A stretch of 64,000 nucleotides of DNA from an uncultured Clostridia bacterium (GTDB lineage: Bacteria > Bacillota > Clostridia > Christensenellales > UBA1242), in contig CALWKA010000001.1 in NCBI GenBank assembly GCA_944381155.1, positions 130,529 to 194,528 of the forward strand, written 5' to 3'. Shown piece by piece: positions 937 to 23,895 of the stretch. Numbering within the stretch: position 1 is the stretch's first letter; every line of letters begins with the position of its first letter. Below the pieces are notes generated by a model. It had not been told where the DNA came from. It saw only the letters and a program-made list of their open reading frames with translations, and made no database searches. Both the position numbers and the translations under genes were made by a program.

Positions 937-1175
937 TTTTATCTCCTTGATTTAACCTATTTTTTCATTTGCTAAAATATGACAAAAAAGACAAAAAAAG
1001 TACAAAATTAGTCATTTTGTGCCTGCAATAACAATGAAAGGTATCTATTGAATTTGTCATTTCTTTAAATAAAAATAGATTTCATATTGTATATCTAAAT
1101 ATAAGTTTATGAAATTCAATTTTGCGTAATCATACAAAAAAGCAACTATCTATAAACTAATTGAGCATCATTTGA

Positions 1176-2181: not shown

Positions 2182-2211
2182 TTGACTTTATCTCCCATTA
2201 TTTTATATAAT
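2182..2211 (+). promoter_or_regulatory. sigma-A-type promoter of the giant gene
   Basis: TTGACT (2182-2187), 18-nt spacer, TATAAT (2206-2211). The SD AAGGTGAGGGG (2244-2254) precedes the ATG at 2257. Confidence 0.6.
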
Positions 2212-2256
2212 TAATTATATTATTTAGGCATTAGCACAAATTAAAGGTGAGGGGTT

Positions 2257-5200
2257 ATGAAAAAGAAAATATTTAGTATTTTGACAGCGGTATTTATCTT
2301 CGTAGTTTGCGGAGTGTTTTCTGCGTGCGGAGATAAGTACAAGGATATGGAATTCAAAATCTATTACGCTTTCTCTCAAGAGGCTGGCGAGTGGTATGAC
2401 GCTACTGACGGCATAGTGTTGAACTATGGCGGGGCGGATGATGAATTTCAAATTGATCAAAACACGGGCGTGGGCACTCTGTATTTAAAAGTTGAAATTG
2501 CCAATGTGAAATCGAAGCACATTGACGAGATCATTGTCACCAAGCGCGGTACTAGTGGTGGAGTAAACTTTTCTACGGCAACAGTTGATCAAAACGAAGT
2601 GTTTGGTATAGATATTACCGGCAACACAAATTCTTCATTGCGATTTTTTGAAACCAATTCGGGCAAACAGGTAGACATTGATCTGTCTATCTATCGCAGT
2701 TTGACCGGCATTCAGGTGGACGCATCAATCAAACCAGCGGTTAAAGTGGGCGATGCAATTAGCTTGACAAGTTTGAAAAATCTATATTATTTGCCAATGC
2801 AAAATGGCAATACTCTTACCAATCAAACAGGCGTGGACTATGAAATTGTGGGCTTAGGGTATTATTCAGATCAAATTGAAGATGGACATAAGAAATTTAT
2901 CCAGACAGAAGATTACTTGTATGCATATAATTATATGTCCATTTCAGAAGATGGTGTTTTGTATGTGTATTCTGATTATATGATTTCGAATTATGAATAC
3001 ATAGTGCGCGTGAGTGCCGTTTCAAAGCATAACCCTAGTATATATACAGAATTTGATGTTTACATAGTGGAAGATCAAGAATTTTCGCCAAAAATATATT
3101 ATACTGATTATACTGACGATTCGAGTCAAAAAGATGTGGGCTCAAGTTTCACATTGTATGACGGAAGTGAGGACTATTCTTCTGTAAATCTAACTATTAA
3201 TAATGACGAACTAGAGAGCGAGTATAAAACAGCAATCAACACAATAGACGCGACGGCTAAATATGAAATTTGTATTTATGTGGACAATAAACTTGTAGAT
3301 TTATCATCTCCAGAAGTAATAAACGGCTTGCTAGTGGAAAGTGTGAATGAGCAAAACAATATTATCCGTTTAACTTCTACCACCGACTACTATCCAACGA
3401 ACAAAATTAAAATTAGTTATGAATTGCGAGAATTTGATTTTTCAGGATCGACAGCTCCCGATTATTCACGCGAAATAGTGATAAACAAAAGTGTTTTGCC
3501 TGAAAATATTTCAATAAACGGAGAATTGGCAGAGCTAAATGATGATTTAATAGGCGAGATGCAGGGGATGATTTATAGTTCAAATAGTTCTTCATATATA
3601 GGATCAAAGCTAACTCTTCTAGCCGAACCAACAAATGCCAATGAAACCACAGATATTTACATTGAAGCCAATGAAAATGTGAGAATCACAGGGCAAATAA
3701 AAAATCAAGAAGGAGATATATATACGATTGAGAGCGGTGCTACAATATTTGTCCGTGTAGCATCAAATGTTGACGAGGATCAAACTATCACAATCAGAAC
3801 ACAGGTTTCTCCTTCAATATTTGAAAATCAAGCGATTTCAGAACGATTTGTAGTGATTTCGTATACACTCAAAAAGGTTGTGACCGCGGATAGTATTGAC
3901 ATTTATGCAGATGAAGATTTAAATATTCCAATAAATAATTCAAGTCTAAACATTGATACAAAAAATGAAACGCACGCCTATATAAAGGTGTATTATACAG
4001 GAACCACTCTTGAAACATCTTCAATATCATTGGAAAGTGACAATAGCGCAATCAAATTTGCAAATAATTCTACTTCAATATTATTAAATGATCCAACAGT
4101 GGAAAGATGGGTTGCTGAGAACGATGAAAATGGTAAATATGATCTATTCCGTGTTTCATTTTTAGGGGCAAACACATTGGGTCAAGCTAGTATTTCTGTT
4201 GTTGCGGGTGAAGGCTCGGTGGGTGTAGATACCAGATTTGTAGCAAATAGTGTATATTTGTTGCAAGAAGAAACGATTGCCGTTGAATCTGGGAGTGCAG
4301 ATGCTAAAGAATTTACAGATATAGAAAATGGGCATTTCAATTTTGCGGTAGCGAAAAATCGATTGATAGAATTTGAACTTTTAGGGATTGTAGAGGGTGC
4401 TAATGTATTTACCGACTTAGGAATTGTAGATTCTAATATTACAATAAACACATTTTATGATGCAAATTATTCGGGTAATAATTTTAGCATTGACGCAGTG
4501 TCTTACAACCAACTAGATAAAAACAAATTTAGTTTAAGAGGTGAGACGGGCGCAAAGACAACCGTATTTTCTATAGAGGTTACATATTATGCAAAAGATA
4601 TAACTTCAGGAATAATAACTCTTGCTAATACGACCGTATATTTAGACATTGCGGTATATGATCCTATCTCCATTATAGATAGGACTATATCTCAGGATCA
4701 AATCGTTTATATTAATGAAAAATATGATTTTGCGTCTACTAGTGAAATAACCTTCTCGTCTTATGCTTCAAACTATTCAGCAGCCTCTAATAGCGTGGTG
4801 TTTAGCGGAGCAGGAAATACAGAGATTATCAAAACAGACGCTTCTCAATTAATGATAGATATAAACCGCGACCTAGATGATGACAACGCGATTGAAATCG
4901 TTTTAGTCAACGAAGATGGTGAAGAAGAAGCAATTTCAGACGGAACAGTTTTGAAAAATGGATCTGAAAATATTTTGTCTGGTAGATTGAAAGTAAAGTT
5001 GAACGGAGTGAGCGATTATGAAGATTTGACATTAAGTTTGACTGCGTTGCGTTTCGGAGATGAATCAAACACTTCTACATCTGTCACCATTGAATTTGCA
5101 CAACATGAACCGGTGGATGGAATTACTTTGTCCGGCAATAGCATAGTTCAAAATGGTATAGATAGTTATTATATATATATGTCTTTCATGGGTGTGGCGG

Positions 5201-8200
5201 AAAATGGCGACACATCTTCTAATTTTAGTGCAACACCATATTATGAATCAAATGTGGCTACCGGACTCAGATATGATGATTTAACTTACAACTTATATCA
5301 AATCGTGCAGGATGAAAATGGAAATATTGTGCGAGATGAGAATGGTAGAGCATTGGAAGATCAAGTGACTTCCACAAGATTAAATATAACAATAGATTCG
5401 GATACGCATAATGTGACCATTCGCGCGTTGAGAAGTCTGGCCGGTGGATTATTCAGATTGGAATTGGCTAGTATGGATTCGTTTGATTCTGCCACACAAT
5501 CATATATGACCACGCAGTCGTTGTTCGTTTCAATCAGCGATGGTACTCCACAAAATAAATATGTGATTACAAACACAAAAGATTTGATTAATATCAACAA
5601 CGATTTGAACGCTAATTATGTATTGAGAAACAACATTATAGTAGACGATATTACAGAAGAAAATACAGAAGAAAAAACGATATTTCCTATTGGCGGAGAG
5701 AGCGCATTCAATGGCACACTCACCGGCAAGGTGCAGAATCTCAATTCAGATAATGAAATCGTGACATCTAGATATAAAATCACATTAAATGTGAATGAAT
5801 CAGTAACAAGCGGTGATAGCGTTTATGCTGGATTGTTCGCACGAATTGGGGAAAATGGTGAGATATCCGATCTGGATATTGATGTAAATTTTGATACTTC
5901 TAGTTTTGGATCGACGACAACTAGTGGCGAATTGAATATTGGCGCGCTAGCAGGAGCAAATGAAGGGGGTACAATTAAAGGCGTTAATGTCACATTGCTA
6001 GGCGGTAGTAAAGACAAAATTAATTTTGTTGCAGGGAATATATCCACTCCTATCAATTTTGGTGGAATAGTTGGCTTAAACACAGGATATATAGATCTCA
6101 CTAGTTCAAATGTGAGCGCAGACGCTCAAATTAAAATCACCACATCCGCCATTGTTCGACACAATATTGGTATGGTGGCGGGCAAAAATTCGGGCGAAAT
6201 TTTTGGCGGATATTTAGGCAAAGAGAGTCTAAATAGCGTCAATTATTCTGTTATTGCAAACTTGAGTTTAACTAACGCTGCCACGAATAATCCTACTCTA
6301 TATCTAGGTTCAATTGCAGGATATAATGCGGGCGGATATATTCATAATTTGATTGTGGGCGGACGCATCAGCGTTTCAGACGATACTTCGATTGCTAATG
6401 TGGACGAAATCGAGGGCTTCGTGGCAGGTATTGTCGGTGGGGCTGAAAATGTTGCCGGTTCGACTGTAAGCGTACAGGGAATTGAAACAGTGGCAGTTTT
6501 GGGCTTGGATCTATCTGCATACAATCCTAGTATGGCTGTCGCTGGTATTGTGGGGCAATCGAGCAGTTCTACAATATCGGATGTGCGCGTATTGGCCTCA
6601 AAAGTTAGTTTTGACCAGGGCGGATTGACGAGTTATGGAAAAATTTATGGGCAAGGAATTGTGGCAGGTATCGTCGCAAATTCAAATGGTGATAAGATCA
6701 CTCTTGCTAGTGTGGAAAGTTTCATTTCAAACACTTTAAGCGCGAGCGGAAATGTAGAACCATTCTATATGTTGAAAAGCGATGCAAACACTGTGGCAGG
6801 TTTGATATATACTTCGTCATCTGGCACAACTCTAAAAAATTCATTCATTTCAGCAAATATAGATACTAATGCATATCTAATTTCAGCGTATCAAACTATC
6901 ATTTTGACATCAAATGCAAATGAAACAAATGTGTATTTCTTGGGTAGAGTAAACAATCTCGAACAGATAAAAGACAATATTTTTGCAAGAGAAACAAGCT
7001 CGGGCTATTATGTTGTGTATACAGACAATTCTATCCTAGACTTTAATGCAGATTCAGTAAATGAACTTGATTTGACTGCTTATTATGTGGCAGAAGAGAT
7101 AGGAAAAGACACTTTATATACTATTCAACAATTTTGGAATGAAGAAGTAGTTATAACTAGTGAAAACTTTGATAGTCAAAAAGAATATTTATATGTTAAG
7201 ACTGGCGAAACTTATGAAAAAGTTGCAAACAGCGCAACCTTTGACGACGCGCTAGAGTATTATTTGCTAGACTACACTTTGTGGCAAAACAATAGAGCAA
7301 GTCTATATGTGGCTGATAAAGACGGATATTTATATAGTTTGACCGATTTCAACTTTAATCCAAATATTACATATTATTCTATAAATAATGTAAATATAAG
7401 AGATTATTATATTAAAGAAACTGAAGAAGCTGAAGAAGATGCTGGAAATGTTCATTATATTAAAAATGACAATTCTAATATCAATATAAATTTCACTTAC
7501 TATCAAATTAGTTGGGAAACACCAGACGATGGTTGGAGAAATACAATAAATGGCTGGCTGGGCGAGGATACAACAAATTGGGAAACAAATTCAGAACGCA
7601 ATTTCATAACAATTTACGGATTGAATTTCTATTTCCCATATCTAGTGGACGATGAAGAAAACATAGTGATGATAGAGCGCCCTACACAGATTCAGGCAGA
7701 TATCAACACAGACTATATTATAGAAATCAATTCATCCTACATTGATAGAGATTATCCAATGCAGGGATATAATATAACTAGCAGTACGATAATCAATTAT
7801 CATAGCGATCTAAACAATCCTTTGAACAACGAATCATACAATAGATACAATATTGTCAACACAGCATCAGCAGGCGAGCAACCAAACGGACTAGTAGATT
7901 TGAATGTCATTCCGTCCAATGCGCAAGGTGGAGTGGTGTTTGAAATCGTGCGCGGTTCGGCTTATGCGTACATCAATTCGCAAAATCAAATAGTGTTCAC
8001 GGGAGTGAGTGGAGCGAATCCAATAATTGTCAGATGCTATTCGCTATTCAATGACGAATTGGAAGAGTTTGTAGCATTCTTTACTCAACTAGGATTGAGC
8101 GATTTGATGCTTACTTCAAATTCAATATATGAAGTGCAAGAAGATGATGTAGATTTTGAACTATATACGCATACAGGAGCAAATTCTACACTCGTCAGCA

Positions 8201-11200
8201 TTTCGGCAGAAAATATTTATCAAGGACAAGCGTTTGCTACAATTTTGGATGCGGGAATAAACAATTATCTTGAAGTGGAAGCAATTTCAAACACTTCTAA
8301 TTCAATTTTAAACATTGTGAACGCAAATTCAACAAATGGCATAATGCTTGAAGTGATAGATGACGAATTTGAGGGCAATATGAGAACAGAGATGATCACA
8401 TTTACTCTCAAATTGAATCTCACTGAATATTTTGGAGAAGAATTCTATCCGGCAAATGCTGGAGTGGATCAATATCTTGATTTGGCTAGTACGAATTTGC
8501 GAGTGGTTATCTACAAAACTGCTACAGATATTGAGATAGAAGGCGGAGATTATTCGGTATACACCAATGCAAACATCGATTTCAATGTGAATTTATATAC
8601 CGGATATGTGAGCGGTGCAGAATCGGGCTCTGTGGGCTATCACAATGTAAACAACACTATAATGTTGGACGAAAGTGATAAAGATAGCATCAACTTGACT
8701 ATAGATTTAATTTCAGGGCAGGACGAACTAGACAAATTAATGCAAAATGCGGGCGTAACAAACATTGTGCAATTGTTCGATTTTGACTTCTATTATTCAC
8801 TTCTAAAAGCGAATGAAGAAGTGCAAGGTTATCAATACACTGTAGAGATGAATCTAAAAGACGAATTTAATTTTAGATATATCACATCTAGCATAGAATT
8901 TAGATTGAGTGTGTATGGAGCAAACAATACAAACATATTAGATAGTATATCAATCGTGTTCAATCCAACCGAATTATCCACTATGCGTATTGAAAATTAT
9001 ACCGCAACCAGCGTAAACACTATCACAAATTATACATCTTTAATAGAAAGTAACACCACCGAAACATCTGTGTTATCACCAGGCGGTTATGGTGGAGTTA
9101 TGATGATTTATTTAGAGCCAAGCTACTCTAATATTGTTTCTGCTACCCTTACTAGCACGAGCTTGTATGTTCCGTCATTAGGCAGGAGCGTATCTATCAT
9201 ATTTGAGCAGTTGGTGAAGAATGAAGATGGGAGATACGAAACAGTATATCCAAACAACGAACAAGTGACCGGCGGAATCAAGTTGCGTTTAGTGTCAAGC
9301 GTGGATGATGAAGGAAATTATAGTTATAATGGTATCATCTATATTCACACTCAAATGGATAAATTCGTAGGAATGTCGGGCACGGTGGAAGCAAATTTAT
9401 CTGTGCAAACGGGCGCAGGCAACACATTTGAACAGACCAAAACTTTGATCACAGAATATTTGCCAGGTGCTACCCTTTATTATGACGGCATCAGTGTAAA
9501 CAACAGCACAAACGAATATTTGATTCAAAAAGACACATATAGCAATGAAGTAAATATCCGTATCTATGGATATCAATTTAACAACAATCCAAGCATAAGT
9601 TTTGTTTGGAAATTGAATGACGGTGATCTTAATTATACCTATGGCAAACAGGCAGTTACAGTTGCCAGCGAAGAAGATTTTGAAAATAGGAAATTGTCAC
9701 TATATTTTAAAGATGAAATTAGTGGGAACTATACTAAATGTGATGAAAATTCAGAATATGATGGAACTAAAACCTATTATGAAGATAATAGAAATGTCAT
9801 AATTGATAAAGGCGGACAATCATATAATATATTAGATTATTTGAGTTATAGATTCTTAAATGATTATAGCGAAGTTGAGCAAAATCAAGACGGTTCGTAC
9901 ACGATGACGGTGTTGCTAAACATTTATCCAGACATTCCAGCGGGCTTTGAGATGAAGGCTAGTTTGACCTTGGCAACGGACGAATCATTGATTACAAGCG
10001 AGCAAGAAAATAGTTTGATTTTCTATCCGGTAGATTATATATTGACGGATATTAATGTGGCTAATCTCAACAATGGTGTTATGAATATCGCTTATAATAG
10101 ATCGTCTGCAATCAATCTATCTTTTGGCACAAACAATCCAAATGCGGACCTATCAGAATCGATATATGAAAAACTTTTGACAGATATTAGCGTGGACGAA
10201 CTAGCAAGTTTATTCACCTATGCGGATACGCAAGGAAATATCATCAAGTTTAGCGATGCGATTGAATTGCATCCAGAGTTTTCTGTGAATATAATCAATG
10301 AAAAATTGACTATCACAGGCATCAATTCGCTTTATAGGACGATTGAATTTGAAGTTCATTATGGATATGTGTTGGAAAATGGTCAGTATGTATTGAAATT
10401 TGGCACAATGTCTAGTAATTCACTAAATAGGACGATGGAATTTAGTTTTGTACTAAATATCTATGCTAGCACTACTGAAGAAAATGCCATTCCAATATAT
10501 TCAGTGGATGATATCTTCGATCCAGAGACGGGCGCGTGCTTGCTAGGAGAAGATGCGGACTATATTTTGATGAACAATATAGTTTTGGAAAATCTCGAGC
10601 CAATCGATGTGGATATTGCCAGCTTTGACGGAAACAACAAAGTGATTAAAATCAGAAGTTTCGCAGTGGGTGTTGATAGGACAGAATATGGATTATTTGC
10701 AAACATTGGCACATATCAAGACATCAATGGAGATACGCAAACTACTATTTTGAAAAATGTAATCGTTGATTATAGCGAGTTTAATTCAAGTTTGAATTTG
10801 ACAAACAATGAGATTACAGATATTGCCTTTGGTGGCTTGGTGGCAAACAATGGCGGTTTGATTTACAACTGCGATGTGATGAATTTGAGTTCAACTGCAA
10901 AAGTTATCAACATTTTATTAGACAATAATAGCGAAGTCGAGATAGTGTTCGGTGGCTTAGTGGCAAACAATTCGGGTATCATCACAAATTCGCGCGTGGG
11001 GAGACTTGGATACACGAAAATCACTGCGGATCAAGACAGCGAAACATCCGTTCAGTTGGGTGGCGGAGCGCTCACATTCGTGATTGGGGATAGCACTCAC
11101 AGCACAGAATCTGGGCAAGGCTTCGTGGGCGTAACTGCGGGCTTTGTAGGAAGAAATACAGGCACGATAGCAAGTTCGTATGTGGCAAACACAGGCATCA

Positions 11201-17200: not shown

Positions 17201-20200
17201 ATTTCGGCTATCTAAAATTAGGTGGCGGAGAAGTAAATTTACAAGAAACGGGACTATTGGGAGTAAATGTCAATGCTGAAAGCGAAATTGGTGATGCAAC
17301 GGACGATGTGACTGTAGACAAAATTCAAATTTTGAAGAATACAATAATAAATGCTAGTGAATATGTCGGCGGATTGTTTGGAGTCATATCTGCTGGCAAT
17401 ATAAGCATAAAAGATTTGGTCACATACAATGGCGAAGGAGTGGAAAATGCACGACCAAATTTAACGATTAATAGTGCAGAATATGCAGGATTAATTGCAG
17501 GTAAAATTGAAGGCGGAAATATTAAATTAGGATTCACTCCAGAAGGATTAAAGGGTCTAGAAGAGATAGGAATAGAAGAAGAAAATGATTCTTTCTATAT
17601 AAGATATGGTAAAAATATTTCTTATGCTGGCGGACTAGTTGGATATATAGGAAATGAAAAGGAATCTTCTATAGATGTCAGTGCATATACGCAGGAAGAA
17701 AAAGAAGAAACTGGAGGAGAACCAGAAGGAGAACCGGATAATTCGAATAACAATAAAATAGTTATATTTATTTCGGAAGGCGGATTACAATTCTTGGGCG
17801 GTCTAGTGGGTGCTTCATTAGAAGGAAACAATTCAGAAATTGTAATATATAATGGCACAGTTAAAATAAATCAAATCAAAGATGATGAAGGTGTACCGAT
17901 AGGCACTATCGAAAATGTTTACTCGTTTGGCGGATTAATCGCCACATTAGACAATATTAGCGATAATGCTGCGATCACATTCAATAATTGTGGGCTAGAC
18001 TTAGGTACAGAAGGGCTGGCTATATCTAGTGATATAGCTAATATAGATGTGGGTAACTTTTTTGGATTGCTTGCCGCGAAAGTGAACGGCGGGACATTGA
18101 ATGTTCAAAACTTCTATTTCACAGAGGGATCAGACGCGTCCAAAATTACTTATGAACTAATTAATGCGGAAGAGGAGGATGATCACTCAAACGAAGGAAT
18201 GGGCATACTTGTAGGGATACTCAGTGGTGGTAACATAATATTTGATTCTTCTTCATTAATTATGCCAGATTTATATGCGGTGAACCTTTACAATTTAGGC
18301 GGTATAGTGGGAGTATATGATGCGGGTAGTATAGGAATAACAAATGAATCAGCATATCAAGTCTCACTATATGGTACAAGTAATGTAGGAGGCGCTATTG
18401 GTTATGTAACAGGAAATAGTGGAGACATCAAAGATATAGTTATGTCTTCTACAGACGAAGGGGAAGCTGAAGGGTCTGTCGAGGCAGAAGTTGGCAAAAC
18501 AGAAGCGGTAGAATATTTTGATTTCATTCATTCAGGTATGCCTTTCGCTAGTTTATATATAAATTCAGAAGGCTATACTGATCGATCTAATTGGGGCGGT
18601 CTGTTTGGCTATTATGATAAAGCAGATTTCAACGCTGAAGAAACCGATGACGATTTAGGCAGAGCAACAGAGGTAATTGAAATAATAAATGGCAATGCAA
18701 TAATCATAAGCGAAGGTACAACAGAAAGAGCTATTACTATTACTAATGTTGGCGGAGTGGTTGGCAAAATCAGTGGAAATACTAAAGCAATCAACAAATT
18801 ACAGAATAGTGCTTTAATAGGACCAGAAGAAGAAACTGAAGTTTGGGGGCTAGCCGAATCCAATGCATTCATTATGAATGCAGTGAATCCAGAGGACGAT
18901 GATTCAAAAAATACAGTCACATTGAACAATGTTGGCGGAGTGATAGGATATATCAGTGGCGCAACTGACGAAATTGCCATCACTGAATTAAATAATTCTG
19001 GAGTGATTCAAGGAAATCAAAATATCGGCGGAGTGATAGGATATATCAGTGACAGTGAAGGCGCGGACGAAATGACAATCTCTGCGATATCTAATGAATC
19101 AAACATGATTCAAGGATATCAAAATGTAGGCGGAGTGATAGGATATGCAGGCGGTGCGACAATCACAGGAATATCTAATAATACAACTGAAATGGTTCAA
19201 GGATATCAAAATGTAGGCGGACTGATAGGATATGCGGATGCCGAACTGATAGTTTCAAACGAATTAGATTTTGGTGAGACAACTCCTGTTGCCGGAGAAT
19301 TATATTTCAAAAAGATAGAGCCAGACGAAGCCACCAAAGAAGGTGCAAGGGCGGAAGATACGAATAAAGAAACTTATGAATTGTATATAGCAAAAGATGA
19401 TGAAACAGAGACGCTTTACAATTTGACTAGTAGTTCAGCAAACTCTGGCACAGTGTCTGGCGTGCTGAATGTGGGCGGAGCGTTCGGAATATTCAATGGA
19501 GAATTGGCAGAAAATATTTTCTCTGAAGCTGATGTTTATGGCAACGCAAATGTCGGCGGATTTGTGGGTTATGTGTTCAATGGGGATTCGACACTCTCAA
19601 ATAATATTGTGGCACTAAAATCCGAACCAGGCAGTAATTTAATAATAAAAGGCGTGTATTTAGCTATCAATTTTGAATCAGAGTCAGAGGTAGGAAAGTC
19701 AGAAATAATTTCAGAGATGTTCATTCCTACTAGCGTGGGTGGATTTGTAGGCACCATGGAGGACGGAATATTGAGAAGCAATTCTTTGTTCAATTCCAAT
19801 GTGATATCTTCACAAGAAGGAGATACTAGCGGAATAACCGCCGATGACTACAACAACAAAATTATCTCTACCGTTTCAAACAATATGTTGAAAATAAATG
19901 TATCCACAGGTATGGACTTATATCAAGATCCGGAAAAAACATTTGAATATTACACTTTTAAAGATGATGACTATGAGATAGCGGAGAATGTTTCCATAGT
20001 GTTCAATTCAACCAGTTCAGGCTTTGGCGGTTTCGCAGGTACAATGTCCTCATATACTGCACTAGCAGATGAAGACGACCAGTATTTAATTCAGTCAAAT
20101 GGTTTCCAAGTTAATGTCAATGCTCAATTAGGAATAAATGTCGGCACATTTTATGGATATTATTATGGTGGATCAAGCACAGGTGTAGAAGAAAAGGTGA

Positions 20201-23200
20201 TCCTCACTCCTAAGTTTTTAGGATCAGACACTGTTAATACGGTGGCTGGTGGATACAATATTGGCGGAGTGATAGGGCAATATTCAGGTTCTCAAAATTT
20301 GAGTCAATTTACATTGAGTGATACAAATAGTCAAGGAACGATTTCGTTGCAACCAATATACACTGGCATGTATGTGGGCGGATTGTTTGGAGTGTTACAA
20401 TCTAACGAAGTAGAAGGATTGGTATTAGATTCTACTAAAGACGGTGTCAGCATAAACATCAATTTGGAAAACACATATTACGCAGGCGGACTTGTAGGCA
20501 AACTTTATGTAACTGAAGATGCTAGTTTTGAGGGTCAACTAACGCAAAATGTGGCTTCGGGCTCTACGCTGATTGCTGAAAAATTCGGTGCACTTATAGG
20601 CTTGTTGAAAGTTGACGGAAGATCTGGCGGATCAGGATATAATGTGACAGTCAAAGGCGATCATGGCTATCCATTCACTATCAACACCATAGAAAATTCA
20701 AATTATGAAGACGGAGAAAGTAAATCTGGTGTATCATTATCTGGAGAATCTTCGGTGGATCTAGTAGCAATGGCTACTTATATCAATAAAGATACTTTCA
20801 ATATATCACCATCTAATAGTAGCTATGATAAAAATCCTACCCGAGCTGATTCGTGGGGATGGGCAAAAGAATATACAATGTTCAAGACTATGCAAAGGTG
20901 CATTCCAGCTAGCGACAACAAAGGTGCTCCATGGGATGCAATATCTGTGGTGTACGATGCTTCGAATATCACAAATGTAGGCACGATCAGCAATCTAAAT
21001 CTAACGAATACTTATTTATACGGAGAAGAAATATCTTCTAGCGAATGGAAAAATATGATGGATGAAGCAGAAGAAAAAGAAATGTGGGATGGTGAAAAAA
21101 TAGTAGAGCCAAGTCAAAGCGATGAAGGCTATGAAGAGAAACGATCTTTTTACAATAGTTGTAAAGTAATAGGGAAGAAAGATGGAAAATATCTATTCAA
21201 TCCAAACTATATTTGCTATACGATATATGAAGAAGCGGATGGCATAGAGAGAATGTATTCAGCAATTGGTATTGCAGAACCATATTTTGACATGGATGGT
21301 AATTACGCAATACCAAAAGTAGATAAGGAATTGGATTCAATGGAAGATTTCTTTGGTTGGTTAGGTTCAATCATTCTAGGACTAGATCCTCCAAGCTCAT
21401 ATTACCCATTAGTATTGAATAAAGGTACAGGATATCAGGGATTGACATATATAGATTTCAATGCTTCATATCCAGATGTGAATGGTGAAAGGCAAGGATT
21501 CTGGCCGTCAGCTAGTTCTTATAGAGATTATTTCTGTACAATTGATCATTTCTATGCATACGATGAAGATGGAGAAAGTCGAGAAGAAAGAACCGATACA
21601 ACATATTTTATGTTCACATATTTCTATACTAATGGCACTTTGGAAAATGGAGTTTTAAATACATTAGCAGATAGTGGGTCAATGTTTGATGTGAATGGAT
21701 TGCATTCTAGTGCTTTTGAAGATGTAATGAAAACAAAAGCTGAAGGAGAAACTTATCCTTGGTTAAAATATGCTCAATGGGCAACCGTTGCGGTAACGGT
21801 AATGGTAGGATTCTTTACAGCGGGAGGCGGTTCTTTACTTCTTTCAGCAGGAAAAGCACTTCTCAAGAAAATAGGTCAAACAATAGCAAAAATGACTGTT
21901 AAAAAATTCTTAAAAGGAGCATTAGTTGTGGGCATAGGTGCGGTGATTGCTAATACATTTGCTAATATGATAATATCGCAATCAATTGCTAGCCAATCTG
22001 CAGAAACTGTATATTATAATATTAAGAATGAGAATTTGGGTTACATTGGCGAATTATATAGGCGCGAGATAGCATATGAAATCACAGATGATGGCGCTAT
22101 ATTGAAGAATCAAGTAGATGCCGTTACCTCAGATAGCAAGGATGTGAATTATGTATTCTATTCAAAGGATAGACCAGACGATTATTACACGAATAGGTAT
22201 TTCGTATATATCCCTGCTGGAGATAATTATGAAACTATATATATGGAATCTATTGAGAATGCCGAGTTGGTAACAAGTGGAAATTTTGAAGGTGCATACG
22301 AATTTGAATATCTAGAAGGAACTGCTTATGCGTATGAATACTATATTTATCAAAATGGAGAATATTATGTATTGATGGACGCAATGCAAACCAGCACGGT
22401 TCCTACGCAAATGCCTCTTCCAGATGCATTGAGAGAAAATTATGATTATATATATTCATTTGGCAACATTTATGTCCGTGGGAAATACGAAGGCACTGAT
22501 TATGTATACGATCAAAATAGTGGAGAGATAGACAATGCAATAGTATGTGATGAGTATGGAAATTATACTATTAATGGTGTGAAATGGGATACTAAATGGG
22601 GTTTTATAACTGCAACAAAAGGATTGAAATATACTATTCTAAACGATGATAGTGTAAAGGAAAATAAAGATGACACAACGGGTATGTATTATATTCCAGA
22701 TGACGGAATGGGGGATGGCAGATATTATTACGGATATGGCTATATGAAGAATGCCTATTATACAGCAATAGGTGATTGGAGGATAGAAAATGCAGTTGAA
22801 AAAATTGGAACATTTAGTAATCGCACAACATCTGTTCCAACAGACAAAGACAAAGAAGGCATAGATTATGTGACCAGAACCTATATAGAATATGGTACTG
22901 ACGACGATGGAAATCCTATTGTCGAGAAACAAATAACTTATTATTATACTATATCAAAAATAGAAGATCGAGATAAGGACGATGCAACAATTGAGAATAA
23001 ATTTGAAAATGCGAGCAGTCTATCTGGAACGATTACTGATCTATCTGAGCTTCCAGATGAGGTTTATGTAAAGTTATATCCAGATTCATTTGATAATCCA
23101 TATGATGAAAGTATAAATGATGAAATAGTTTCTGATTCTCAAGATAGTTATATTTATCAGTTAAATGCAGATAAAGATGTTCCAGGAGTGGGTCATGCGA

Positions 23201-23865
23201 CTACCTATTATTATTACGAAGGCGGTTATATCACTAAAGAATATGGAGAAAAGGGAGAATTAGTAGCATACCAAAAGGTGTATGATTCGTCTAATACTTC
23301 TTCAGGTAAAGAGCAAGTCATTAAGCTTTATGAGGAAGATGGTGAAATTTTGCCAGATTGGTATTCATATTACTATATATTTAAACATTATAACGATTTA
23401 AGTTCATACTATGTTCAAGACATCACTGGACTTAAAGAAGGCACAGATACTGACATCTATAAAGTTAGCAATCAATACATTAAAAAAGACAATAGGTACT
23501 TGTATCAAATGATTTCAGATAAACAGATTTCTGAAGACGGCAAATTAAGTACGATCATGGTGTCATTTCCTAACGCGACTGACGAAAGTTTCAACAAAAA
23601 TAAATATCTGATGCAAGCAGAAATTCAACTCTTTACTAGATATAAATATAACGATATAGAAGACGAAGTTAACACATCTTTGTTCTTTGGAGGATTGTGG
23701 GAATATACGGATGACGAAAACAACAAAGAATATTATTACTTTTATAAAGAAGACAGCAACACGCCGAATCCAGGAATGACCACTTATCTGGTTGAGAGTT
23801 GCAGAGTGATTCTAGGTGGGGCATCCATTAGCGGAGCCTCCGGTGGAGGAATCAATTTAGCATAA
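2257..23865 (+). CDS. giant (7,202 aa) cell-surface lipoprotein-signal protein with Ig-like segments and repeated FDGNG/GLUG-type beta-helix modules, C-proximal TM hairpin
   Basis: Uninterrupted 21,609-nt ORF with an SD, a promoter and a downstream terminator. N-terminus is MKKKIFSILTAVFIFVVCGVFSAC with lipobox Cys24. Module-entry motifs include SAFNGTLTG (about 5701), SFDGNNKVIKI (about 10621), SVDGNGMTISG (about 12121) and LSFTGGGVLNG (about 15703). Each is followed by GLF and dozens of GG(L/I/V)(V/I/A)G turns. Two hydrophobic helices lie at nt 21772-21990. Confidence 0.9.
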   Translation: MKKKIFSILTAVFIFVVCGVFSACGDKYKDMEFKIYYAFSQEAGEWYDATDGIVLNYGGADDEFQIDQNTGVGTLYLKVEIANVKSKHIDEIIVTKRGTSGGVNFSTATVDQNEVFGIDITGNTNSSLRFFETNSGKQVDIDLSIYRSLTGIQVDASIKPAVKVGDAISLTSLKNLYYLPMQNGNTLTNQTGVDYEIVGLGYYSDQIEDGHKKFIQTEDYLYAYNYMSISEDGVLYVYSDYMISNYEYIVRVSAVSKHNPSIYTEFDVYIVEDQEFSPKIYYTDYTDDSSQKDVGSSFTLYDGSEDYSSVNLTINNDELESEYKTAINTIDATAKYEICIYVDNKLVDLSSPEVINGLLVESVNEQNNIIRLTSTTDYYPTNKIKISYELREFDFSGSTAPDYSREIVINKSVLPENISINGELAELNDDLIGEMQGMIYSSNSSSYIGSKLTLLAEPTNANETTDIYIEANENVRITGQIKNQEGDIYTIESGATIFVRVASNVDEDQTITIRTQVSPSIFENQAISERFVVISYTLKKVVTADSIDIYADEDLNIPINNSSLNIDTKNETHAYIKVYYTGTTLETSSISLESDNSAIKFANNSTSILLNDPTVERWVAENDENGKYDLFRVSFLGANTLGQASISVVAGEGSVGVDTRFVANSVYLLQEETIAVESGSADAKEFTDIENGHFNFAVAKNRLIEFELLGIVEGANVFTDLGIVDSNITINTFYDANYSGNNFSIDAVSYNQLDKNKFSLRGETGAKTTVFSIEVTYYAKDITSGIITLANTTVYLDIAVYDPISIIDRTISQDQIVYINEKYDFASTSEITFSSYASNYSAASNSVVFSGAGNTEIIKTDASQLMIDINRDLDDDNAIEIVLVNEDGEEEAISDGTVLKNGSENILSGRLKVKLNGVSDYEDLTLSLTALRFGDESNTSTSVTIEFAQHEPVDGITLSGNSIVQNGIDSYYIYMSFMGVAENGDTSSNFSATPYYESNVATGLRYDDLTYNLYQIVQDENGNIVRDENGRALEDQVTSTRLNITIDSDTHNVTIRALRSLAGGLFRLELASMDSFDSATQSYMTTQSLFVSISDGTPQNKYVITNTKDLININNDLNANYVLRNNIIVDDITEENTEEKTIFPIGGESAFNGTLTGKVQNLNSDNEIVTSRYKITLNVNESVTSGDSVYAGLFARIGENGEISDLDIDVNFDTSSFGSTTTSGELNIGALAGANEGGTIKGVNVTLLGGSKDKINFVAGNISTPINFGGIVGLNTGYIDLTSSNVSADAQIKITTSAIVRHNIGMVAGKNSGEIFGGYLGKESLNSVNYSVIANLSLTNAATNNPTLYLGSIAGYNAGGYIHNLIVGGRISVSDDTSIANVDEIEGFVAGIVGGAENVAGSTVSVQGIETVAVLGLDLSAYNPSMAVAGIVGQSSSSTISDVRVLASKVSFDQGGLTSYGKIYGQGIVAGIVANSNGDKITLASVESFISNTLSASGNVEPFYMLKSDANTVAGLIYTSSSGTTLKNSFISANIDTNAYLISAYQTIILTSNANETNVYFLGRVNNLEQIKDNIFARETSSGYYVVYTDNSILDFNADSVNELDLTAYYVAEEIGKDTLYTIQQFWNEEVVITSENFDSQKEYLYVKTGETYEKVANSATFDDALEYYLLDYTLWQNNRASLYVADKDGYLYSLTDFNFNPNITYYSINNVNIRDYYIKETEEAEEDAGNVHYIKNDNSNININFTYYQISWETPDDGWRNTINGWLGEDTTNWETNSERNFITIYGLNFYFPYLVDDEENIVMIERPTQIQADINTDYIIEINSSYIDRDYPMQGYNITSSTIINYHSDLNNPLNNESYNRYNIVNTASAGEQPNGLVDLNVIPSNAQGGVVFEIVRGSAYAYINSQNQIVFTGVSGANPIIVRCYSLFNDELEEFVAFFTQLGLSDLMLTSNSIYEVQEDDVDFELYTHTGANSTLVSISAENIYQGQAFATILDAGINNYLEVEAISNTSNSILNIVNANSTNGIMLEVIDDEFEGNMRTEMITFTLKLNLTEYFGEEFYPANAGVDQYLDLASTNLRVVIYKTATDIEIEGGDYSVYTNANIDFNVNLYTGYVSGAESGSVGYHNVNNTIMLDESDKDSINLTIDLISGQDELDKLMQNAGVTNIVQLFDFDFYYSLLKANEEVQGYQYTVEMNLKDEFNFRYITSSIEFRLSVYGANNTNILDSISIVFNPTELSTMRIENYTATSVNTITNYTSLIESNTTETSVLSPGGYGGVMMIYLEPSYSNIVSATLTSTSLYVPSLGRSVSIIFEQLVKNEDGRYETVYPNNEQVTGGIKLRLVSSVDDEGNYSYNGIIYIHTQMDKFVGMSGTVEANLSVQTGAGNTFEQTKTLITEYLPGATLYYDGISVNNSTNEYLIQKDTYSNEVNIRIYGYQFNNNPSISFVWKLNDGDLNYTYGKQAVTVASEEDFENRKLSLYFKDEISGNYTKCDENSEYDGTKTYYEDNRNVIIDKGGQSYNILDYLSYRFLNDYSEVEQNQDGSYTMTVLLNIYPDIPAGFEMKASLTLATDESLITSEQENSLIFYPVDYILTDINVANLNNGVMNIAYNRSSAINLSFGTNNPNADLSESIYEKLLTDISVDELASLFTYADTQGNIIKFSDAIELHPEFSVNIINEKLTITGINSLYRTIEFEVHYGYVLENGQYVLKFGTMSSNSLNRTMEFSFVLNIYASTTEENAIPIYSVDDIFDPETGACLLGEDADYILMNNIVLENLEPIDVDIASFDGNNKVIKIRSFAVGVDRTEYGLFANIGTYQDINGDTQTTILKNVIVDYSEFNSSLNLTNNEITDIAFGGLVANNGGLIYNCDVMNLSSTAKVINILLDNNSEVEIVFGGLVANNSGIITNSRVGRLGYTKITADQDSETSVQLGGGALTFVIGDSTHSTESGQGFVGVTAGFVGRNTGTIASSYVANTGITNYSTAPEGTSSNYSMTAGFVGENASTGVISYSYVKALENTISETNPRSTGVEIYSPTNGNVAGFVYLNAGRISNSFANTVLTSTSAYVAGFVYNNQSGAEISESYAACTLNGVFTANDASEQPFVGVSNSDELLSYGVMDNAYYLIDGDNSYIVKTESGKDQAIGLNQENFTNSGSLNGFVFIESNSRIERSQGVWSYYNQNNSYRILPELPNANQVSHSYRYLLRQENSMYIYSNAVSYEPGSANNPNIIRSVEEYNEIMLSGNTSNSLTGYVRFINNIDFASDETAIKTRVNFVLGDVNNETVTSVDGNGMTISGIYLDVGNAQEESIGLFAEIHNAYVKNLNLEFATTAETDGQFSSLSAIYSGGLAGLVDNGVIINITLDGASTTISGQNFAGGLAGIIKGASLIYGIDSNLSVKAVNTDVANYYNYYSEEEFATMRAFGAISYTGSYDSYLTQLSFAGGIAGVFDLDARQYADFNISYINVYGNEMYDKREIDANILADYAGGIAGYAGKETSSLRLKYYVGQNNLIRGQFAVGGIYAVSSGDITASQVTAEEDEQYTYDTTLGKYIIDIENGEETEIDTANAGNLNLLETYGYAGGLIGISINSHIDSCYSKAGFKVGSTIGGLIGVSIASNTVYSYAVPYINVDDTYLTKVGGLIGSAYGVRSGTIDRNQAVNEYINYLTLILGEKNKNTDIQFTFSTILVDVNDISTKNVETDKYVNFDYICADYGQLENGDAGYLTSNNGSAFIYVFAGLVDAYSRVVDEDGLSILKHTNEARSSDEELNLLYDTSEDNVEQVSTFNNIFSSWDTTYWTMDPERYFPLLLNEDPKNYILIETADDFYQMLARPDENFMIVEDIDMSEWCARNNTNFIFDIEFTGILVGQKEDNSIPVLYNLYLSPTNEEDAGLFRATNEATLRNITFEWGPNINEGTASEVYSSVLLGTTVDTFGGVSAQDEGSLFSNLTVRVKSKEVDKTTSLFNSNNGTIAGFGGIVGRATNSNILNCTFSGRVDVTLTSNDGSINFGGLVAEANRESEDEENVNMTIMNSHIGLNDTNIAEDIEITEFNLTINDAINSYIGGAVGYASGAAVTSISVGDVSFNPEYRRIKFNINLANSSANNYFGGMVGGLENSQLSTTNAITEINVSGKEQTSVDIATRSYINAYAGLVGYYRLSGSNPNLNINSSNTSANINVANDTYITNLLISTGVAYAESSSEIEMLIEQSLFTGMINTELAEDSANNLKNVYAGGVFAYASSESSINVSEVMTTSNLIVGSVETIQLYAGSLIGQGNVVKATNFASTGRIVPITGYSEDPTNNHFYIGGFVGQANSVEITNAYSLTSIIADSIEYQALQALNINALFGDITDDNISTEYVYYSSDYALFTEESGAGYNLSAYTLTRTNMWRTDVDNGLNYRAGFWTEIESASGSYYLPYISSLDTQLVNYGILKEDNNTYSYQLNALTPTIVDNGASTNILVSDVEPEDFKYYILSNNLTQLSFTGGGVLNGILIGGESEYTEFGTQTSGEYTGIIPQVGRHSAISNLHIRLSAKEDGYKIGGATSGIIAGLNEGVIFNSSIQGTGITINSTNMGLVSGRNSGLISYSYSSLEIVEANATSLAGITYQNQGMILSCYFTGYINNANVAEDGNITQKFLAASIVVENVEMGGGGEYVSNFIYNTYSAGVIEAVSDQGNSFIAKEIGLMGANNYIDELANVENVTIKNEVGEEEYVILSTIDTAQLMSAEVLDGYDDGKWYYTTYKINFQSYYLIDRDSETFGYNYLYPTLRVDKIIVDDSTEWDSPHNFAYFDNEYLLYTGTGAINMADGGSVVGYEEVLNALASSTDEDVVAGEGAAVDDGAGGDTGAADNALAELVKRDIMRIPHLGLLSAIRSLMINYGEVFPETEIDYEIIQLYYVLIYDIDGTYQEGEEGGLTQIYDWTPVGNANSSESNTFYIGSASAFEGFFVSNKNYDFTTLSLKDACAISNLSDGIFENIQDAYFGYLKLGGGEVNLQETGLLGVNVNAESEIGDATDDVTVDKIQILKNTIINASEYVGGLFGVISAGNISIKDLVTYNGEGVENARPNLTINSAEYAGLIAGKIEGGNIKLGFTPEGLKGLEEIGIEEENDSFYIRYGKNISYAGGLVGYIGNEKESSIDVSAYTQEEKEETGGEPEGEPDNSNNNKIVIFISEGGLQFLGGLVGASLEGNNSEIVIYNGTVKINQIKDDEGVPIGTIENVYSFGGLIATLDNISDNAAITFNNCGLDLGTEGLAISSDIANIDVGNFFGLLAAKVNGGTLNVQNFYFTEGSDASKITYELINAEEEDDHSNEGMGILVGILSGGNIIFDSSSLIMPDLYAVNLYNLGGIVGVYDAGSIGITNESAYQVSLYGTSNVGGAIGYVTGNSGDIKDIVMSSTDEGEAEGSVEAEVGKTEAVEYFDFIHSGMPFASLYINSEGYTDRSNWGGLFGYYDKADFNAEETDDDLGRATEVIEIINGNAIIISEGTTERAITITNVGGVVGKISGNTKAINKLQNSALIGPEEETEVWGLAESNAFIMNAVNPEDDDSKNTVTLNNVGGVIGYISGATDEIAITELNNSGVIQGNQNIGGVIGYISDSEGADEMTISAISNESNMIQGYQNVGGVIGYAGGATITGISNNTTEMVQGYQNVGGLIGYADAELIVSNELDFGETTPVAGELYFKKIEPDEATKEGARAEDTNKETYELYIAKDDETETLYNLTSSSANSGTVSGVLNVGGAFGIFNGELAENIFSEADVYGNANVGGFVGYVFNGDSTLSNNIVALKSEPGSNLIIKGVYLAINFESESEVGKSEIISEMFIPTSVGGFVGTMEDGILRSNSLFNSNVISSQEGDTSGITADDYNNKIISTVSNNMLKINVSTGMDLYQDPEKTFEYYTFKDDDYEIAENVSIVFNSTSSGFGGFAGTMSSYTALADEDDQYLIQSNGFQVNVNAQLGINVGTFYGYYYGGSSTGVEEKVILTPKFLGSDTVNTVAGGYNIGGVIGQYSGSQNLSQFTLSDTNSQGTISLQPIYTGMYVGGLFGVLQSNEVEGLVLDSTKDGVSININLENTYYAGGLVGKLYVTEDASFEGQLTQNVASGSTLIAEKFGALIGLLKVDGRSGGSGYNVTVKGDHGYPFTINTIENSNYEDGESKSGVSLSGESSVDLVAMATYINKDTFNISPSNSSYDKNPTRADSWGWAKEYTMFKTMQRCIPASDNKGAPWDAISVVYDASNITNVGTISNLNLTNTYLYGEEISSSEWKNMMDEAEEKEMWDGEKIVEPSQSDEGYEEKRSFYNSCKVIGKKDGKYLFNPNYICYTIYEEADGIERMYSAIGIAEPYFDMDGNYAIPKVDKELDSMEDFFGWLGSIILGLDPPSSYYPLVLNKGTGYQGLTYIDFNASYPDVNGERQGFWPSASSYRDYFCTIDHFYAYDEDGESREERTDTTYFMFTYFYTNGTLENGVLNTLADSGSMFDVNGLHSSAFEDVMKTKAEGETYPWLKYAQWATVAVTVMVGFFTAGGGSLLLSAGKALLKKIGQTIAKMTVKKFLKGALVVGIGAVIANTFANMIISQSIASQSAETVYYNIKNENLGYIGELYRREIAYEITDDGAILKNQVDAVTSDSKDVNYVFYSKDRPDDYYTNRYFVYIPAGDNYETIYMESIENAELVTSGNFEGAYEFEYLEGTAYAYEYYIYQNGEYYVLMDAMQTSTVPTQMPLPDALRENYDYIYSFGNIYVRGKYEGTDYVYDQNSGEIDNAIVCDEYGNYTINGVKWDTKWGFITATKGLKYTILNDDSVKENKDDTTGMYYIPDDGMGDGRYYYGYGYMKNAYYTAIGDWRIENAVEKIGTFSNRTTSVPTDKDKEGIDYVTRTYIEYGTDDDGNPIVEKQITYYYTISKIEDRDKDDATIENKFENASSLSGTITDLSELPDEVYVKLYPDSFDNPYDESINDEIVSDSQDSYIYQLNADKDVPGVGHATTYYYYEGGYITKEYGEKGELVAYQKVYDSSNTSSGKEQVIKLYEEDGEILPDWYSYYYIFKHYNDLSSYYVQDITGLKEGTDTDIYKVSNQYIKKDNRYLYQMISDKQISEDGKLSTIMVSFPNATDESFNKNKYLMQAEIQLFTRYKYNDIEDEVNTSLFFGGLWEYTDDENNKEYYYFYKEDSNTPNPGMTTYLVESCRVILGGASISGASGGGINLA
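18925..19245 (+). repeat. tandem ~30-aa (about 90 bp) repeats inside the giant gene
   Basis: NNVGGVIGYISGATDEIAITELNNSGVIQGNQNIGGVIGYISDSEG...MIQGYQNVGGVIGYAGG...MVQGYQNVGGLIGYAD. The DNA strings GGCGGAGTGATAGGATATATCAGTG and CAAGGATATCAAAATGTAGGCGGA recur almost verbatim. Confidence 0.85.
21772..21990 (+). other. predicted two-helix membrane hairpin within the giant protein (aa about 6506-6578)
   Basis: AQWATVAVTVMVGFFTAGGGSLLLSAG, then the Lys-rich loop KALLKKIGQTIAKMTVKKFLK, then GALVVGIGAVIANTFANMIISQSIA. The positive loop suggests it faces the cytoplasm. Confidence 0.6.
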
Positions 23866-23895
23866 AAATACGCTAGCATATGCTAGCGTATTTTT
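23864..23895. terminator. bidirectional intrinsic terminator shared by the giant gene and the convergent lipoprotein gene
   Basis: Near-perfect palindrome AAAAATACGCTAGCA TA TGCTAGCGTATTTTT, with A-runs and T-runs on both sides. Confidence 0.85.

Follow-up and report, generated by a model that had tools for sequence, protein, structure and literature searches.

The window analysed here is a 64,000-nucleotide (nt) stretch of contig CALWKA010000001.1 (GenBank assembly GCA_944381155.1, positions 130,529 to 194,528) from an uncultured Clostridia bacterium. Near its left end lies a giant gene of 21.6 kb, a single open reading frame (ORF) that encodes a predicted lipoprotein of 7,202 amino acids (aa), followed by a convergent gene for a much smaller lipoprotein and by several housekeeping genes (Table 1). 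An earlier interpretation made from the DNA letters alone, called here the sequence-only reading, held that so long a frame is not due to chance and that the gene has its own promoter, Shine-Dalgarno sequence and palindromic terminator. Both statements stand. At a content of ~36% guanine plus cytosine (GC), ~7% of codons are expected to be stops, and arithmetic from this composition gives a probability of ~1e-227 for 7,202 stop-free codons in what is one ATG-to-stop ORF. All three expression signals are present, the terminator hairpin having 14 pairs.

Integrity of the reading frame

The giant ORF is a real, intact gene. The exact 7,202-aa protein is found on at least five public contigs (NCBI, ENA, Logan), and intact variants of 7,220, 7,227 and 7,209 aa, which are 96-97% identical to the window protein, are present in ERZ24773471, SRR27728197 and SRR7457757, respectively; the frame is unbroken in four samples that were put together by different assemblers. 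Among 1.84 billion cluster representatives, only 72 proteins matched a profile made from the C-terminal 1,053 residues. Twelve of the 72 are 5,866-7,185 aa long, and the matched region lies at the extreme C-terminus of each full-length one. Eleven orthologs can be aligned end to end with the window protein at 34-60% identity. A lipoprotein signal peptide opens every ortholog with a complete N-terminus (11/11), and the glycine-rich turns described below are distributed along the length in the same way in all 12 full-length orthologs.

Tandem DNA repeats were not found in the giant gene, and a BLASTP comparison of the protein with itself gives essentially no internal similarity; collapse or expansion during assembly is therefore unlikely. 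The only recognisable DNA repeat within the gene, family D3, consists of diverged units that encode QGYQNVGGVIGY-type stretches with a repeat length of 29-34 residues. The sequence-only reading had asked for assembly collapse to be excluded, and the several independent assemblies with an intact frame, together with the lack of collapsible repeats, answer that concern. It is barely credible that the ORF is an artefact or a decaying gene, that is, a mis-assembled chimera or a pseudogene that is open by accident. Every assembly is a short-read metagenome, and in one relative (L003; GCA_947853785.1, contig CANTXG010000021.1, 5860-6010) a single frameshift, which may stem from a sequencing error or mark a truly inactivated gene, splits the ortholog into 1,960 and 839 aa. 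However, beyond the length of the frame and its freedom from repeats, the gene is open in the four samples and in 12 diverged orthologs, and the ratio of nonsynonymous to synonymous change (omega) is 0.07-0.3 across most of it. The 839-aa product in L003 (P0049) was also considered as a separate "tail gene" and rejected, as it results from one frameshift in an otherwise continuous gene.

Host lineage and distribution

Orthologs of the giant gene are conserved, at the same genomic position, throughout a family of gut Clostridia with reduced genomes. A scan of GTDB, which covers one genome per species and requires exact peptide patterns, so that its count is a lower bound, yields at least 18 species-level loci, all in metagenome-assembled genomes of animal-gut Clostridia; in every one of them the frame is open through the entire available upstream flank (up to 10 kb). 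The loci are labelled "uncultured Clostridia bacterium" (BRZ_ and Lapin- series), Candidatus Onthoplasma faecipullorum, faecigallinarum, or "uncultured Christensenella sp." Directly downstream of the giant gene, a homolog of the convergent 367-aa lipoprotein is present in 19 of 20 related loci, the remaining one (L006) ending inside the gene, and beyond it the rplJ leader and rplJ follow where the locus sequence reaches far enough.

The host family is most likely Christensenellales UBA1242. The housekeeping genes of the window are 93-96% identical to those of the nearest species (L009, L010) and ~79-83% identical to those of Onthoplasma, which is a genus of UBA1242 (PMC12306168). Genomes of this family are mostly <1 Mb, the set in PMC12306168 spanning 671-1,611 kb, and they are without amino-acid, nucleotide and lipid biosynthesis or standard transporters; their owners have been proposed to be obligate symbionts or parasites that depend on a partner (PMC12306168). 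UBA1242 bacteria are common in chicken caeca, where they are negatively associated with body weight (PMC13155120). The small, low-GC genome that had been guessed from the letters thus agrees with relatives that are mostly <1 Mb and a GC content of ~36%, and the giant gene would take ~2-3% of a UBA1242 genome of the <1-Mb type. Sporulation genes are reported to be retained in the family despite genome reduction (PMC12306168), and the gene for a SpoIIID-family regulator in the window is consistent with this.

Architecture of the protein

The giant protein begins with MKKKIFSILTAVFIFVVCGVFSAC and ends with ...GGASISGASGGGINLA. The FSAC lipobox and its Cys24, noticed in the sequence-only reading, are upheld by the family, since the Cys and its [ASG]-C context are kept in 11 of 11 full-length orthologs. 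Neither lgt nor lspA is in the window. After the signal peptide comes a string of domains that had been described as ~1,090 aa of Ig-like, Big_2-like segments. The fold part of this description is supported: an AlphaFold2 model of aa 25-1100, built with eight orthologs, has a mean predicted local distance difference test (pLDDT) score of 82.5 and is all-beta, with about ten beta-sandwich units, and a Foldseek comparison of this model with PDB retrieves Nup210, the MG domains of complement C3/C5, Sap, SbsC, contactin and cadherins. The template-modelling (TM) scores are low, as expected of a flexible domain string. The family part is not supported, as Pfam calls neither Big_2 nor any other family on aa 25-1100. 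A word-index search with the N-terminal 1,150 aa gave no match; the index yielded only fragments of the family, none >5,000 aa, so that this negative carries little weight.

Much of the remaining length is made up of seven mutually homologous modules, M1 to M7. Profiles built from ortholog alignments and compared by hhalign link pairs of modules at 92-98.7% probability, and the similarity between modules is below BLASTP detection. At least the first four modules open with the grammar I..t.eDL..I...nY.L..DI.L...F(D/N)GNG..I..L...GLF, as do those of a 1114-aa protein encoded further downstream. Turns of the GG[LIV][VIA]G type occur 40 times in the giant protein, spaced ~29-34 residues apart where regular. 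The modules and their GG turns are real, as the sequence-only reading had proposed; its count of five or six module entries has to be raised to seven.

The modules probably belong to the GLUG/Peptidase_M26_N superfamily, a link that is real but remote. The only Pfam Glug match in the giant protein, at aa ~3977-3997 of M4, scores 20.5 bits, which is exactly the gathering cut-off. In the M2-M3 block, two of eight orthologs match Glug or M26_N in Pfam, with a best E-value of 5.5e-6, and Pfam finds no match on two 4,400-aa ortholog segments. Profiles reach further: M3 aligns by hhalign with the M26_N-matching stretch of the 1114-aa neighbour at 83.7%, and with a profile of aa 2760-3790, proteins that carry a PF07581 or PF05342 annotation are recovered at E-values of 6e-60 to 4e-4. 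Otherwise, this M2-M3 profile retrieves fragments of the same family, called "hypothetical protein" where they are named. Matches of 1,000-1,500 aa (P0127-P0140) were considered as a standalone family and rejected; they have no signal peptides and start inside domains, which marks them as fragments. Thus, the GLUG pattern named earlier survives as remote profile homology, whereas most modules stay below Pfam thresholds. GLUG repeats have been described as solenoid repeats (PMC4021314) of unknown function (PMC9723798), and in M26 IgA1 proteases the NTD2 domain folds as a beta-helix (PMC9637739). Given the remote link to both, a beta-solenoid or beta-helix fold is a reasonable inference for the modules.

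As had been reported, no HExxH is present anywhere in the giant protein, and the motif scan finds no LPxTG sortase signal. Pfam detects no SLH, CWB2 or choline-binding domains, and neither Pfam nor NCBIfam matches Peptidase_M26_C or another peptidase family.

Searches of Pfam, NCBIfam, PHROGs and PDB, including those with profiles of 8-17 sequences, reveal no relatives of three regions of the protein (aa 1801-2750, 6151-6500 and 6591-7202). The central region (aa 1801-2750) has no Pfam or PDB match and is unrelated to the modules by hhalign; the acidic spacer at aa 4801-4990 likewise shows no homology to them in hhalign comparisons. For the pre-membrane domain, a 17-sequence profile finds no relative in Pfam or PDB. 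It is followed by a transmembrane hairpin with the loop SAGKALLKKIGQTIAKMTVKKFLKG, which has a net charge of +7. The sequence of the hairpin is not conserved but the feature is: two hydrophobic segments are present in all 12 aligned full-length proteins, and the net charge of the loop is +3 to +17 in 11 of them. The hairpin proposed in the sequence-only reading is therefore confirmed as a conserved feature. Based on the positive-inside rule, the loop is inferred to be cytoplasmic and both flanks to be outside. The final 612 residues form a tail that is acidic like the ectodomain (111 D+E versus 51 K+R) and that is homologous along its whole length in 17 sequences, with dozens of invariant Tyr and Gly residues. 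Judged by sequence, this tail defines the family. It had been called unknown, and it is without relatives in all four of the databases searched.

Table 1. Features of the giant gene and its surroundings (window positions; aa, residues of the giant protein unless a protein length is given)
Feature	Position	Strand	Details
SpoIIID-family sporulation regulator gene	637-936	-	99 aa
Sigma-70-type promoter-like site	2182-2211	+	TTGACT-18-TATAAT; 11/12 matches, consensus match only
Shine-Dalgarno sequence	2243-2254	+	AAAGGTGAGGGG; read directly; ends 2 nt upstream of the ATG at 2257
Giant lipoprotein gene	2257-23865	+	ATG start, 7,202 codons and one terminal stop
Lipoprotein signal peptide	2257-2328	+	aa 1-24; lipobox FSAC, Cys24; sequence read
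String of ~10 Ig-like beta-sandwich domains	2329-5556	+	aa 25-1100; AlphaFold2 pLDDT 82.5
Module M1 (GLUG/M26_N-like solenoid module, predicted)	5557-6936	+	aa 1101-1560; hhalign M1-M2 98.7%, M1-M4 98.5%; GG-turn cluster
Poorly conserved, indel-rich linker	6937-7656	+	aa 1561-1800; 17-20% identity and 37-45% gaps across orthologs; strain-variable
Conserved central orphan region	7657-10506	+	aa 1801-2750; 950 aa; omega 0.09
Module M2	10507-11946	+	aa 2751-3230; entry motif FDGNNKVIKI...YGLF
Module M3	11947-13626	+	aa 3231-3790; entry motif VDGNGMTISGI...IGLF
Module M4	13627-15516	+	aa 3791-4420; hhalign 95.6-98.5% to M1, M2, M3
Module M5 (short)	15517-16656	+	aa 4421-4800; hhalign M1-M5 96.5%
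Low-conservation acidic spacer	16657-17226	+	aa 4801-4990; 19% identity and 38% gaps at aa 4801-4900
Module M6	17227-18606	+	aa 4991-5450; hhalign M6-M7 96.6%, M4-M6 94.8%
Module M7	18607-20706	+	aa 5451-6150; holds four diverged 29-34-residue units (QGYQNVGGVIGY...)
Repeat family D3	18897-19235	+	four diverged units of 87-102 nt; aa ~5548-5660
Pre-membrane orphan domain	20707-21756	+	aa 6151-6500; recombinant, hypervariable among strains
Transmembrane hairpin	21757-22026	+	aa 6501-6590 (hairpin ~6505-6580); two hydrophobic helices and Lys-rich loop; Kyte-Doolittle peaks 6510, 6551
Tyr-rich acidic orphan tail	22027-23862	+	aa 6591-7202; 612 aa, 12.9% Tyr
Palindromic bidirectional intrinsic-terminator-like hairpin	23864-23895	.	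14-bp stem, between convergent genes
367-aa lipoprotein	23920-25023	-	LAGC lipobox (…ALGTAGLAGC internal signal), Pro-rich linker; convergent to giant gene
L10 leader, then rplJ, rplL	25470-26505		leader Rfam RF00557, 56 bits
ComF-like gene	27257-28003		
RecD2	28551-30764	-	
489-aa protein	31274-32743	+	long Lys/Glu/Gln/Thr/Ala-rich low-complexity stretches
1114-aa protein	33230-36574	+	N-terminal transmembrane anchor, two canonical GLUG-type modules; Pfam Peptidase_M26_N E 2e-9
616-aa protein	41153-43003	+	long Lys/Glu/Gln/Thr/Ala-rich low-complexity stretches

Conservation and strain variation

The best-conserved part of the protein is M2-M3, which shows 50-60% identity family-wide and 84-86% to the nearest species, and which contains many invariant polar residues. 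Identity drops toward the C-terminus, and the tail is only 51% identical to that of the nearest species, whose RecD2 and L10 are ~96% identical. The earlier suggestion to ask whether the locus is conserved or hypervariable in related genomes therefore has a two-part answer: the locus is conserved and syntenic, and its C-terminal parts are hypervariable among strains.

The strain analysis compares four variants, and its pairwise comparisons are not independent. Over aa 2100-4400 and most of 4700-5990, synonymous divergence (dS) is ~0, omega is not measurable, and protein identity is 99.7-100%. At aa 1-200, dS is 0.13-0.17 and omega is low (0.02-0.08); over the Ig-like region omega is 0.11. Module M1 is variable among strains, and from aa ~1200 to 2000 dS reaches up to 0.17 in most 100-aa windows, with an omega of 0.38 over aa 1201-1800. 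A recombinant block at aa 4500-4700 has a dS of 0.17-0.22 (aa 4498-4692) and an omega of 0.25-0.27. In the pre-membrane domain (aa 6151-6500) dS is 0.21, with a peak of 0.41 at aa 6390-6472, and omega is 0.46; in the hairpin (aa 6501-6590) the values are 0.03 and 0.07. The tail (aa 6591-7202) has a dS of 0.10 and an omega of 0.87 when pooled (0.76-1.35 by pair), and within it, aa 6762-6944 have a dS of 0.05-0.14 and an omega of 1.24-2.03 in six of six pairs. Strains with middle parts that are 99.7-100% identical share only 82-89% protein identity in the tail.

The giant gene is a mosaic among the four strain variants. Because dS ranges ~50- to 100-fold within one gene, the pattern indicates that divergent alleles have been imported by recombination. 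It is proposed that the juxtamembrane regions and the tail diversify fast by recombination plus relaxed or positive selection, and the rapid change of these parts suggests pressure from antibodies, phages or partner specificity. A diversity-generating retroelement was also considered and rejected: within window 1-30000 no DNA repeat matches the tail, and the dS of the tail is raised as well, pointing to recombination. No reverse transcriptase was found among the neighbours scanned with Pfam.

Neighbouring genes

The 367-aa lipoprotein has no match in Pfam or PHROGs. It is 24-46% identical between species and 99.5-99.7% identical within its own 90% cluster of strains. In L023, for example, the tail is 85% identical to that of the window, yet the DNA over the 367-aa gene is 99.7% identical. 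Since this neighbour is nearly invariant where tails differ, it does not co-vary with the tail, and a toxin-immunity pairing of the two was rejected for this reason. To judge by its position, the 367-aa lipoprotein may be a functional partner of the giant protein.

Two further GLUG-type surface proteins are encoded nearby. The modules of the 1114-aa protein (FNGNGKTISSL...GLF and FDGNGFTIRGL...GLF) are joined by a PTDPSDPDD low-complexity linker, and the protein keeps its place after RecD2 in six or more related loci; in PDB, its phmmer matches are confined to the low-complexity Pro/Asp linker. Another giant gene (2,982 aa) lies ~2-10 kb upstream (L001:1-7942), mostly outside the window, and has a Glug match at an E-value of 3.5e-9 and an M26_N-like region. 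It is followed in L001 by an S26 signal-peptidase-like gene (193 aa) and then by four Pfam-negative genes (792, 208, 205 and 264 aa). A stretch of ~45 kb in a genome that is probably <1 Mb thus encodes no fewer than three surface proteins of the GLUG type, with a combined length of 11,298 aa. The 489-aa and 616-aa low-complexity proteins have no Pfam match; the latter is a member of a 14-sequence cluster from several assemblies.

The usual arrangement of ribosomal protein and RNA polymerase genes is an rplJL-rpoBC linkage. In the window, rplJ-rplL is not continued by rpoB and rpoC; the ComF-like gene and RecD2 come instead. The spacers at 160-600, 1900-2180, 26800-27230 and 28100-28400 have an extremely high A+T content; direct and inverted repeats, degenerate and themselves A/T-rich, form families within them. 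Window 1-2000 has a GC content of 26% overall.

Proposed function

The giant protein is probably, with modest confidence, a lineage-specific cell-surface adhesin or tether that is doubly anchored, and its most likely role would be that of the main attachment fibre of its host bacteria. According to this model, which draws on predicted topology, the protein would be exported through Sec and lipidated at Cys24. About 6,480 residues would then lie outside the membrane: the Ig-like stalk, M1, the variable linker, the 950-aa orphan region, M2-M7 and the pre-membrane domain. The chain would next dip through the membrane as a hairpin, with the Lys-rich loop in the cytoplasm, and re-emerge as the 612-aa Tyr-rich acidic tail. 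The ectodomain would be tethered at both ends and, because both of these ends are fixed, the middle, M2-M3, would be the part that reaches furthest from the cell. M2-M3 would then be the obvious candidate for the part that binds a conserved ligand, on the surface of either a host or a partner. The two-anchor topology is supported by the strain data, in which both flanks of the hairpin are hypervariable and the hairpin itself has an omega of 0.07. Retention across the family, collinear over ~7,000 residues, implies a central role, and attachment is the most economical reading because the organism is predicted to be without its own building-block synthesis and standard transporters. Motif scans, Pfam, NCBIfam, PHROGs, tblastn against phage genomes and IMG/VR give no catalytic, sortase, SLH, toxin or phage signature in the protein. 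A phage or prophage origin was rejected, as PHROGs, the phage genomes and IMG/VR contigs hold no relatives.

Several observations count against an attachment fibre of this form. Adhesins usually vary most at their distal tips. In the giant protein, the variable parts adjoin the membrane and not a free tip, which does not fit neatly and fits only if the two-anchor geometry is correct. In addition, the loop of one ortholog (P0054) is uncharged and the second hydrophobic segment is weak in some others; an AlphaFold2 model of the pre-membrane domain, hairpin and tail (4 sequences) had a pLDDT of 30.8 and was discarded; and the ~2,150 residues without detectable relatives, those of the central region, the pre-membrane domain and the tail, could conceal an enzymatic or other function.

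An envelope scaffold or surface-layer (S-layer) substitute, that is, a structural coat or spacer that would organise or protect the wall of a minimal cell, is unlikely, if still credible. The gene occurs as a single copy at a syntenic position, is retained by every relative and evolves under purifying selection along most of its length; its product, with its predicted anchors at both ends and an Ig-like string that resembles the assembly domains of Sap and SbsC at the fold level, could serve in such a coat, perhaps together with the two GLUG-type surface proteins encoded nearby. Most S-layer proteins have masses of 40-200 kDa and form lattices by self-assembly. However, nothing in the giant protein indicates lattice contacts, Pfam finds no SLH, CWB2 or other wall-binding domain, and the Foldseek likeness is generic to Ig-like chains and has low TM-scores. 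It is quite improbable that the protein is a surface-displayed enzyme array, in which the modules or orphan regions would degrade glycans or act as lyases or peptidases, in the manner of tailspikes, M26 proteases or enzymes with the pectate-lyase fold, and would draw nutrients from mucus, from the diet or from adjacent cells. The invariant polar residues of M2-M3 could be read in this way, beta-helices often scaffold bacterial enzymes (PMC9637739), and the organism needs external metabolites (PMC12306168). Nevertheless, besides the missing HExxH, neither single sequences nor ortholog sets match an enzyme family in Pfam or NCBIfam, and there is no PDB profile match.

A polymorphic toxin or contact-dependent effector, with the tail as the delivered toxin and the 367-aa gene as its immunity protein, is very improbable. 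In its favour, CdiA-like and Rhs-like systems typically have a giant, filamentous N-terminal portion, the C-terminus of the UBA1242 protein is its most variable part among strains, and a fast-evolving small gene always adjoins it. However, the tail is homologous throughout in all orthologs, with no cassette replacement, and is preceded by a transmembrane hairpin. Furthermore, the neighbour is a convergent lipoprotein gene with its own promoter region, whose product stays 99.5-99.7% identical while tails differ by 11-18%, and Pfam finds no toxin, pre-toxin or immunity family. A bolder form of the attachment model, in which UBA1242-type bacteria are Patescibacteria-like dependants and the giant protein is an organelle of partner contact, is rather unlikely. 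Here, contact with a host or bacterial cell in the animal gut would be made through the invariant M2-M3 apex. The hairpin and the hypervariable tail, beyond anchoring the protein, would couple this contact to the membrane, for example by signalling, by serving as a route through which metabolites are taken up, or by entering the envelope of the partner. If true, this would be the first conserved "symbiosis fibre" in reduced-genome Clostridia, with three domains that are orphans at the fold level.

UBA1242 bacteria, which are uncultured, occur widely in the guts of chickens, rabbits and ruminants. As the probable adhesin or tether of its host, the giant protein would provide a handle on their attachment targets and way of life, with the M2-M3 block as a candidate probe for ligand binding. 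Strains could be told apart by the hypervariable tail, which antibodies or phages are likely to target. The protein also adds three sizeable domains without relatives and an unusual predicted topology that combines a lipid anchor with a transmembrane hairpin.

Comparison with known systems

The sequence-only reading could not place the protein in a described adhesin or S-layer family, and this still holds: Pfam, NCBIfam, PHROGs and PDB, searched by sequence or by profile, yield nothing beyond marginal matches, and no description of the family was found in the literature on Onthoplasma, UBA1242, giant genes and GLUG. A close resemblance is to GLUG/M26_N proteins (PF07581, PF05342) of Firmicutes, for example in the beta-helix NTD2 of the IgA1 metalloproteases of streptococci and Gemella. 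Like these, the giant protein has the module-entry grammar (I/V)xxxxDLxxI...NYxLxxDIxL...F(D/N)GNGxxIxxL...GLF and recurring GG(L/I/V)(V/I/A)G turns every 29-34 residues. Unlike the M26 enzymes, it has no M26 catalytic domain or HExxH, and its seven modules sit in a 7,202-aa lipoprotein with orphan domains.

Ebh of Staphylococcus aureus is a giant wall-spanning surface protein of a Gram-positive bacterium. The two proteins share a megadalton size, a signal for export at the N-terminus, a modular ectodomain of great length and, in place of a sortase signal, a membrane anchor towards the C-terminus. However, the giant protein has no FIVAR, GA or DUF1542 repeats (Pfam negative), its modules are anciently diverged rather than near-identical tandem repeats, and it combines a predicted lipid anchor and a transmembrane hairpin with a large tail that is predicted to be extracellular, in place of a short cytoplasmic one. 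The Bacillus proteins Sap and SbsC (PDB 6hhu, 9g93, 4uj6) match the Ig-like chain of aa 25-1100 in Foldseek. This match is generic, as equal or higher scores are reached by Nup210, complement proteins and cadherins, and the giant protein differs from Sap and SbsC in having no SLH anchor and no sequence similarity to them (9-12% identity). The repeats-in-toxin (RTX) adhesins of type 1 secretion systems, such as LapA and SiiE, are unlike it as well: in Pfam, neither RTX nor Ca-binding repeats are detected, the surrounding genes have housekeeping roles, and an N-terminal Sec/lipobox signal is present instead.

The SPEARE proteins of Nanohaloarchaeota are comparable giants of ultra-small, partner-dependent prokaryotes. 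The giant genes of Omnitrophota (bioRxiv 10.1101/2023.11.21.568195) resemble the UBA1242 gene in encoding lineage-specific, membrane-anchored giants that take a sizeable share of a reduced genome in an organism predicted to be partner-dependent, and in mixing Ig-like elements with beta-helices, the latter being predicted for the giant protein. In contrast to both, the UBA1242 protein comes from Bacillota of the animal gut, has only one transmembrane hairpin and is without SecA-like, peptidase or dockerin domains; it also falls far short of the >30,000 aa of the Omnitrophota proteins. The Clostridia giants listed in the same study are RCC1 or Listeria-Bacteroides-repeat proteins and not members of the UBA1242 family. 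Gram-positive bacteria and ultra-small symbionts are thus already known to have giant modular adhesins, and the likely parent superfamily of GLUG/M26_N solenoids is known as well. What appears to be new is an undescribed, clade-restricted family of ~7,000-aa proteins with a predicted lipid anchor and transmembrane hairpin, three orphan domains and striking variation at the level of strains.

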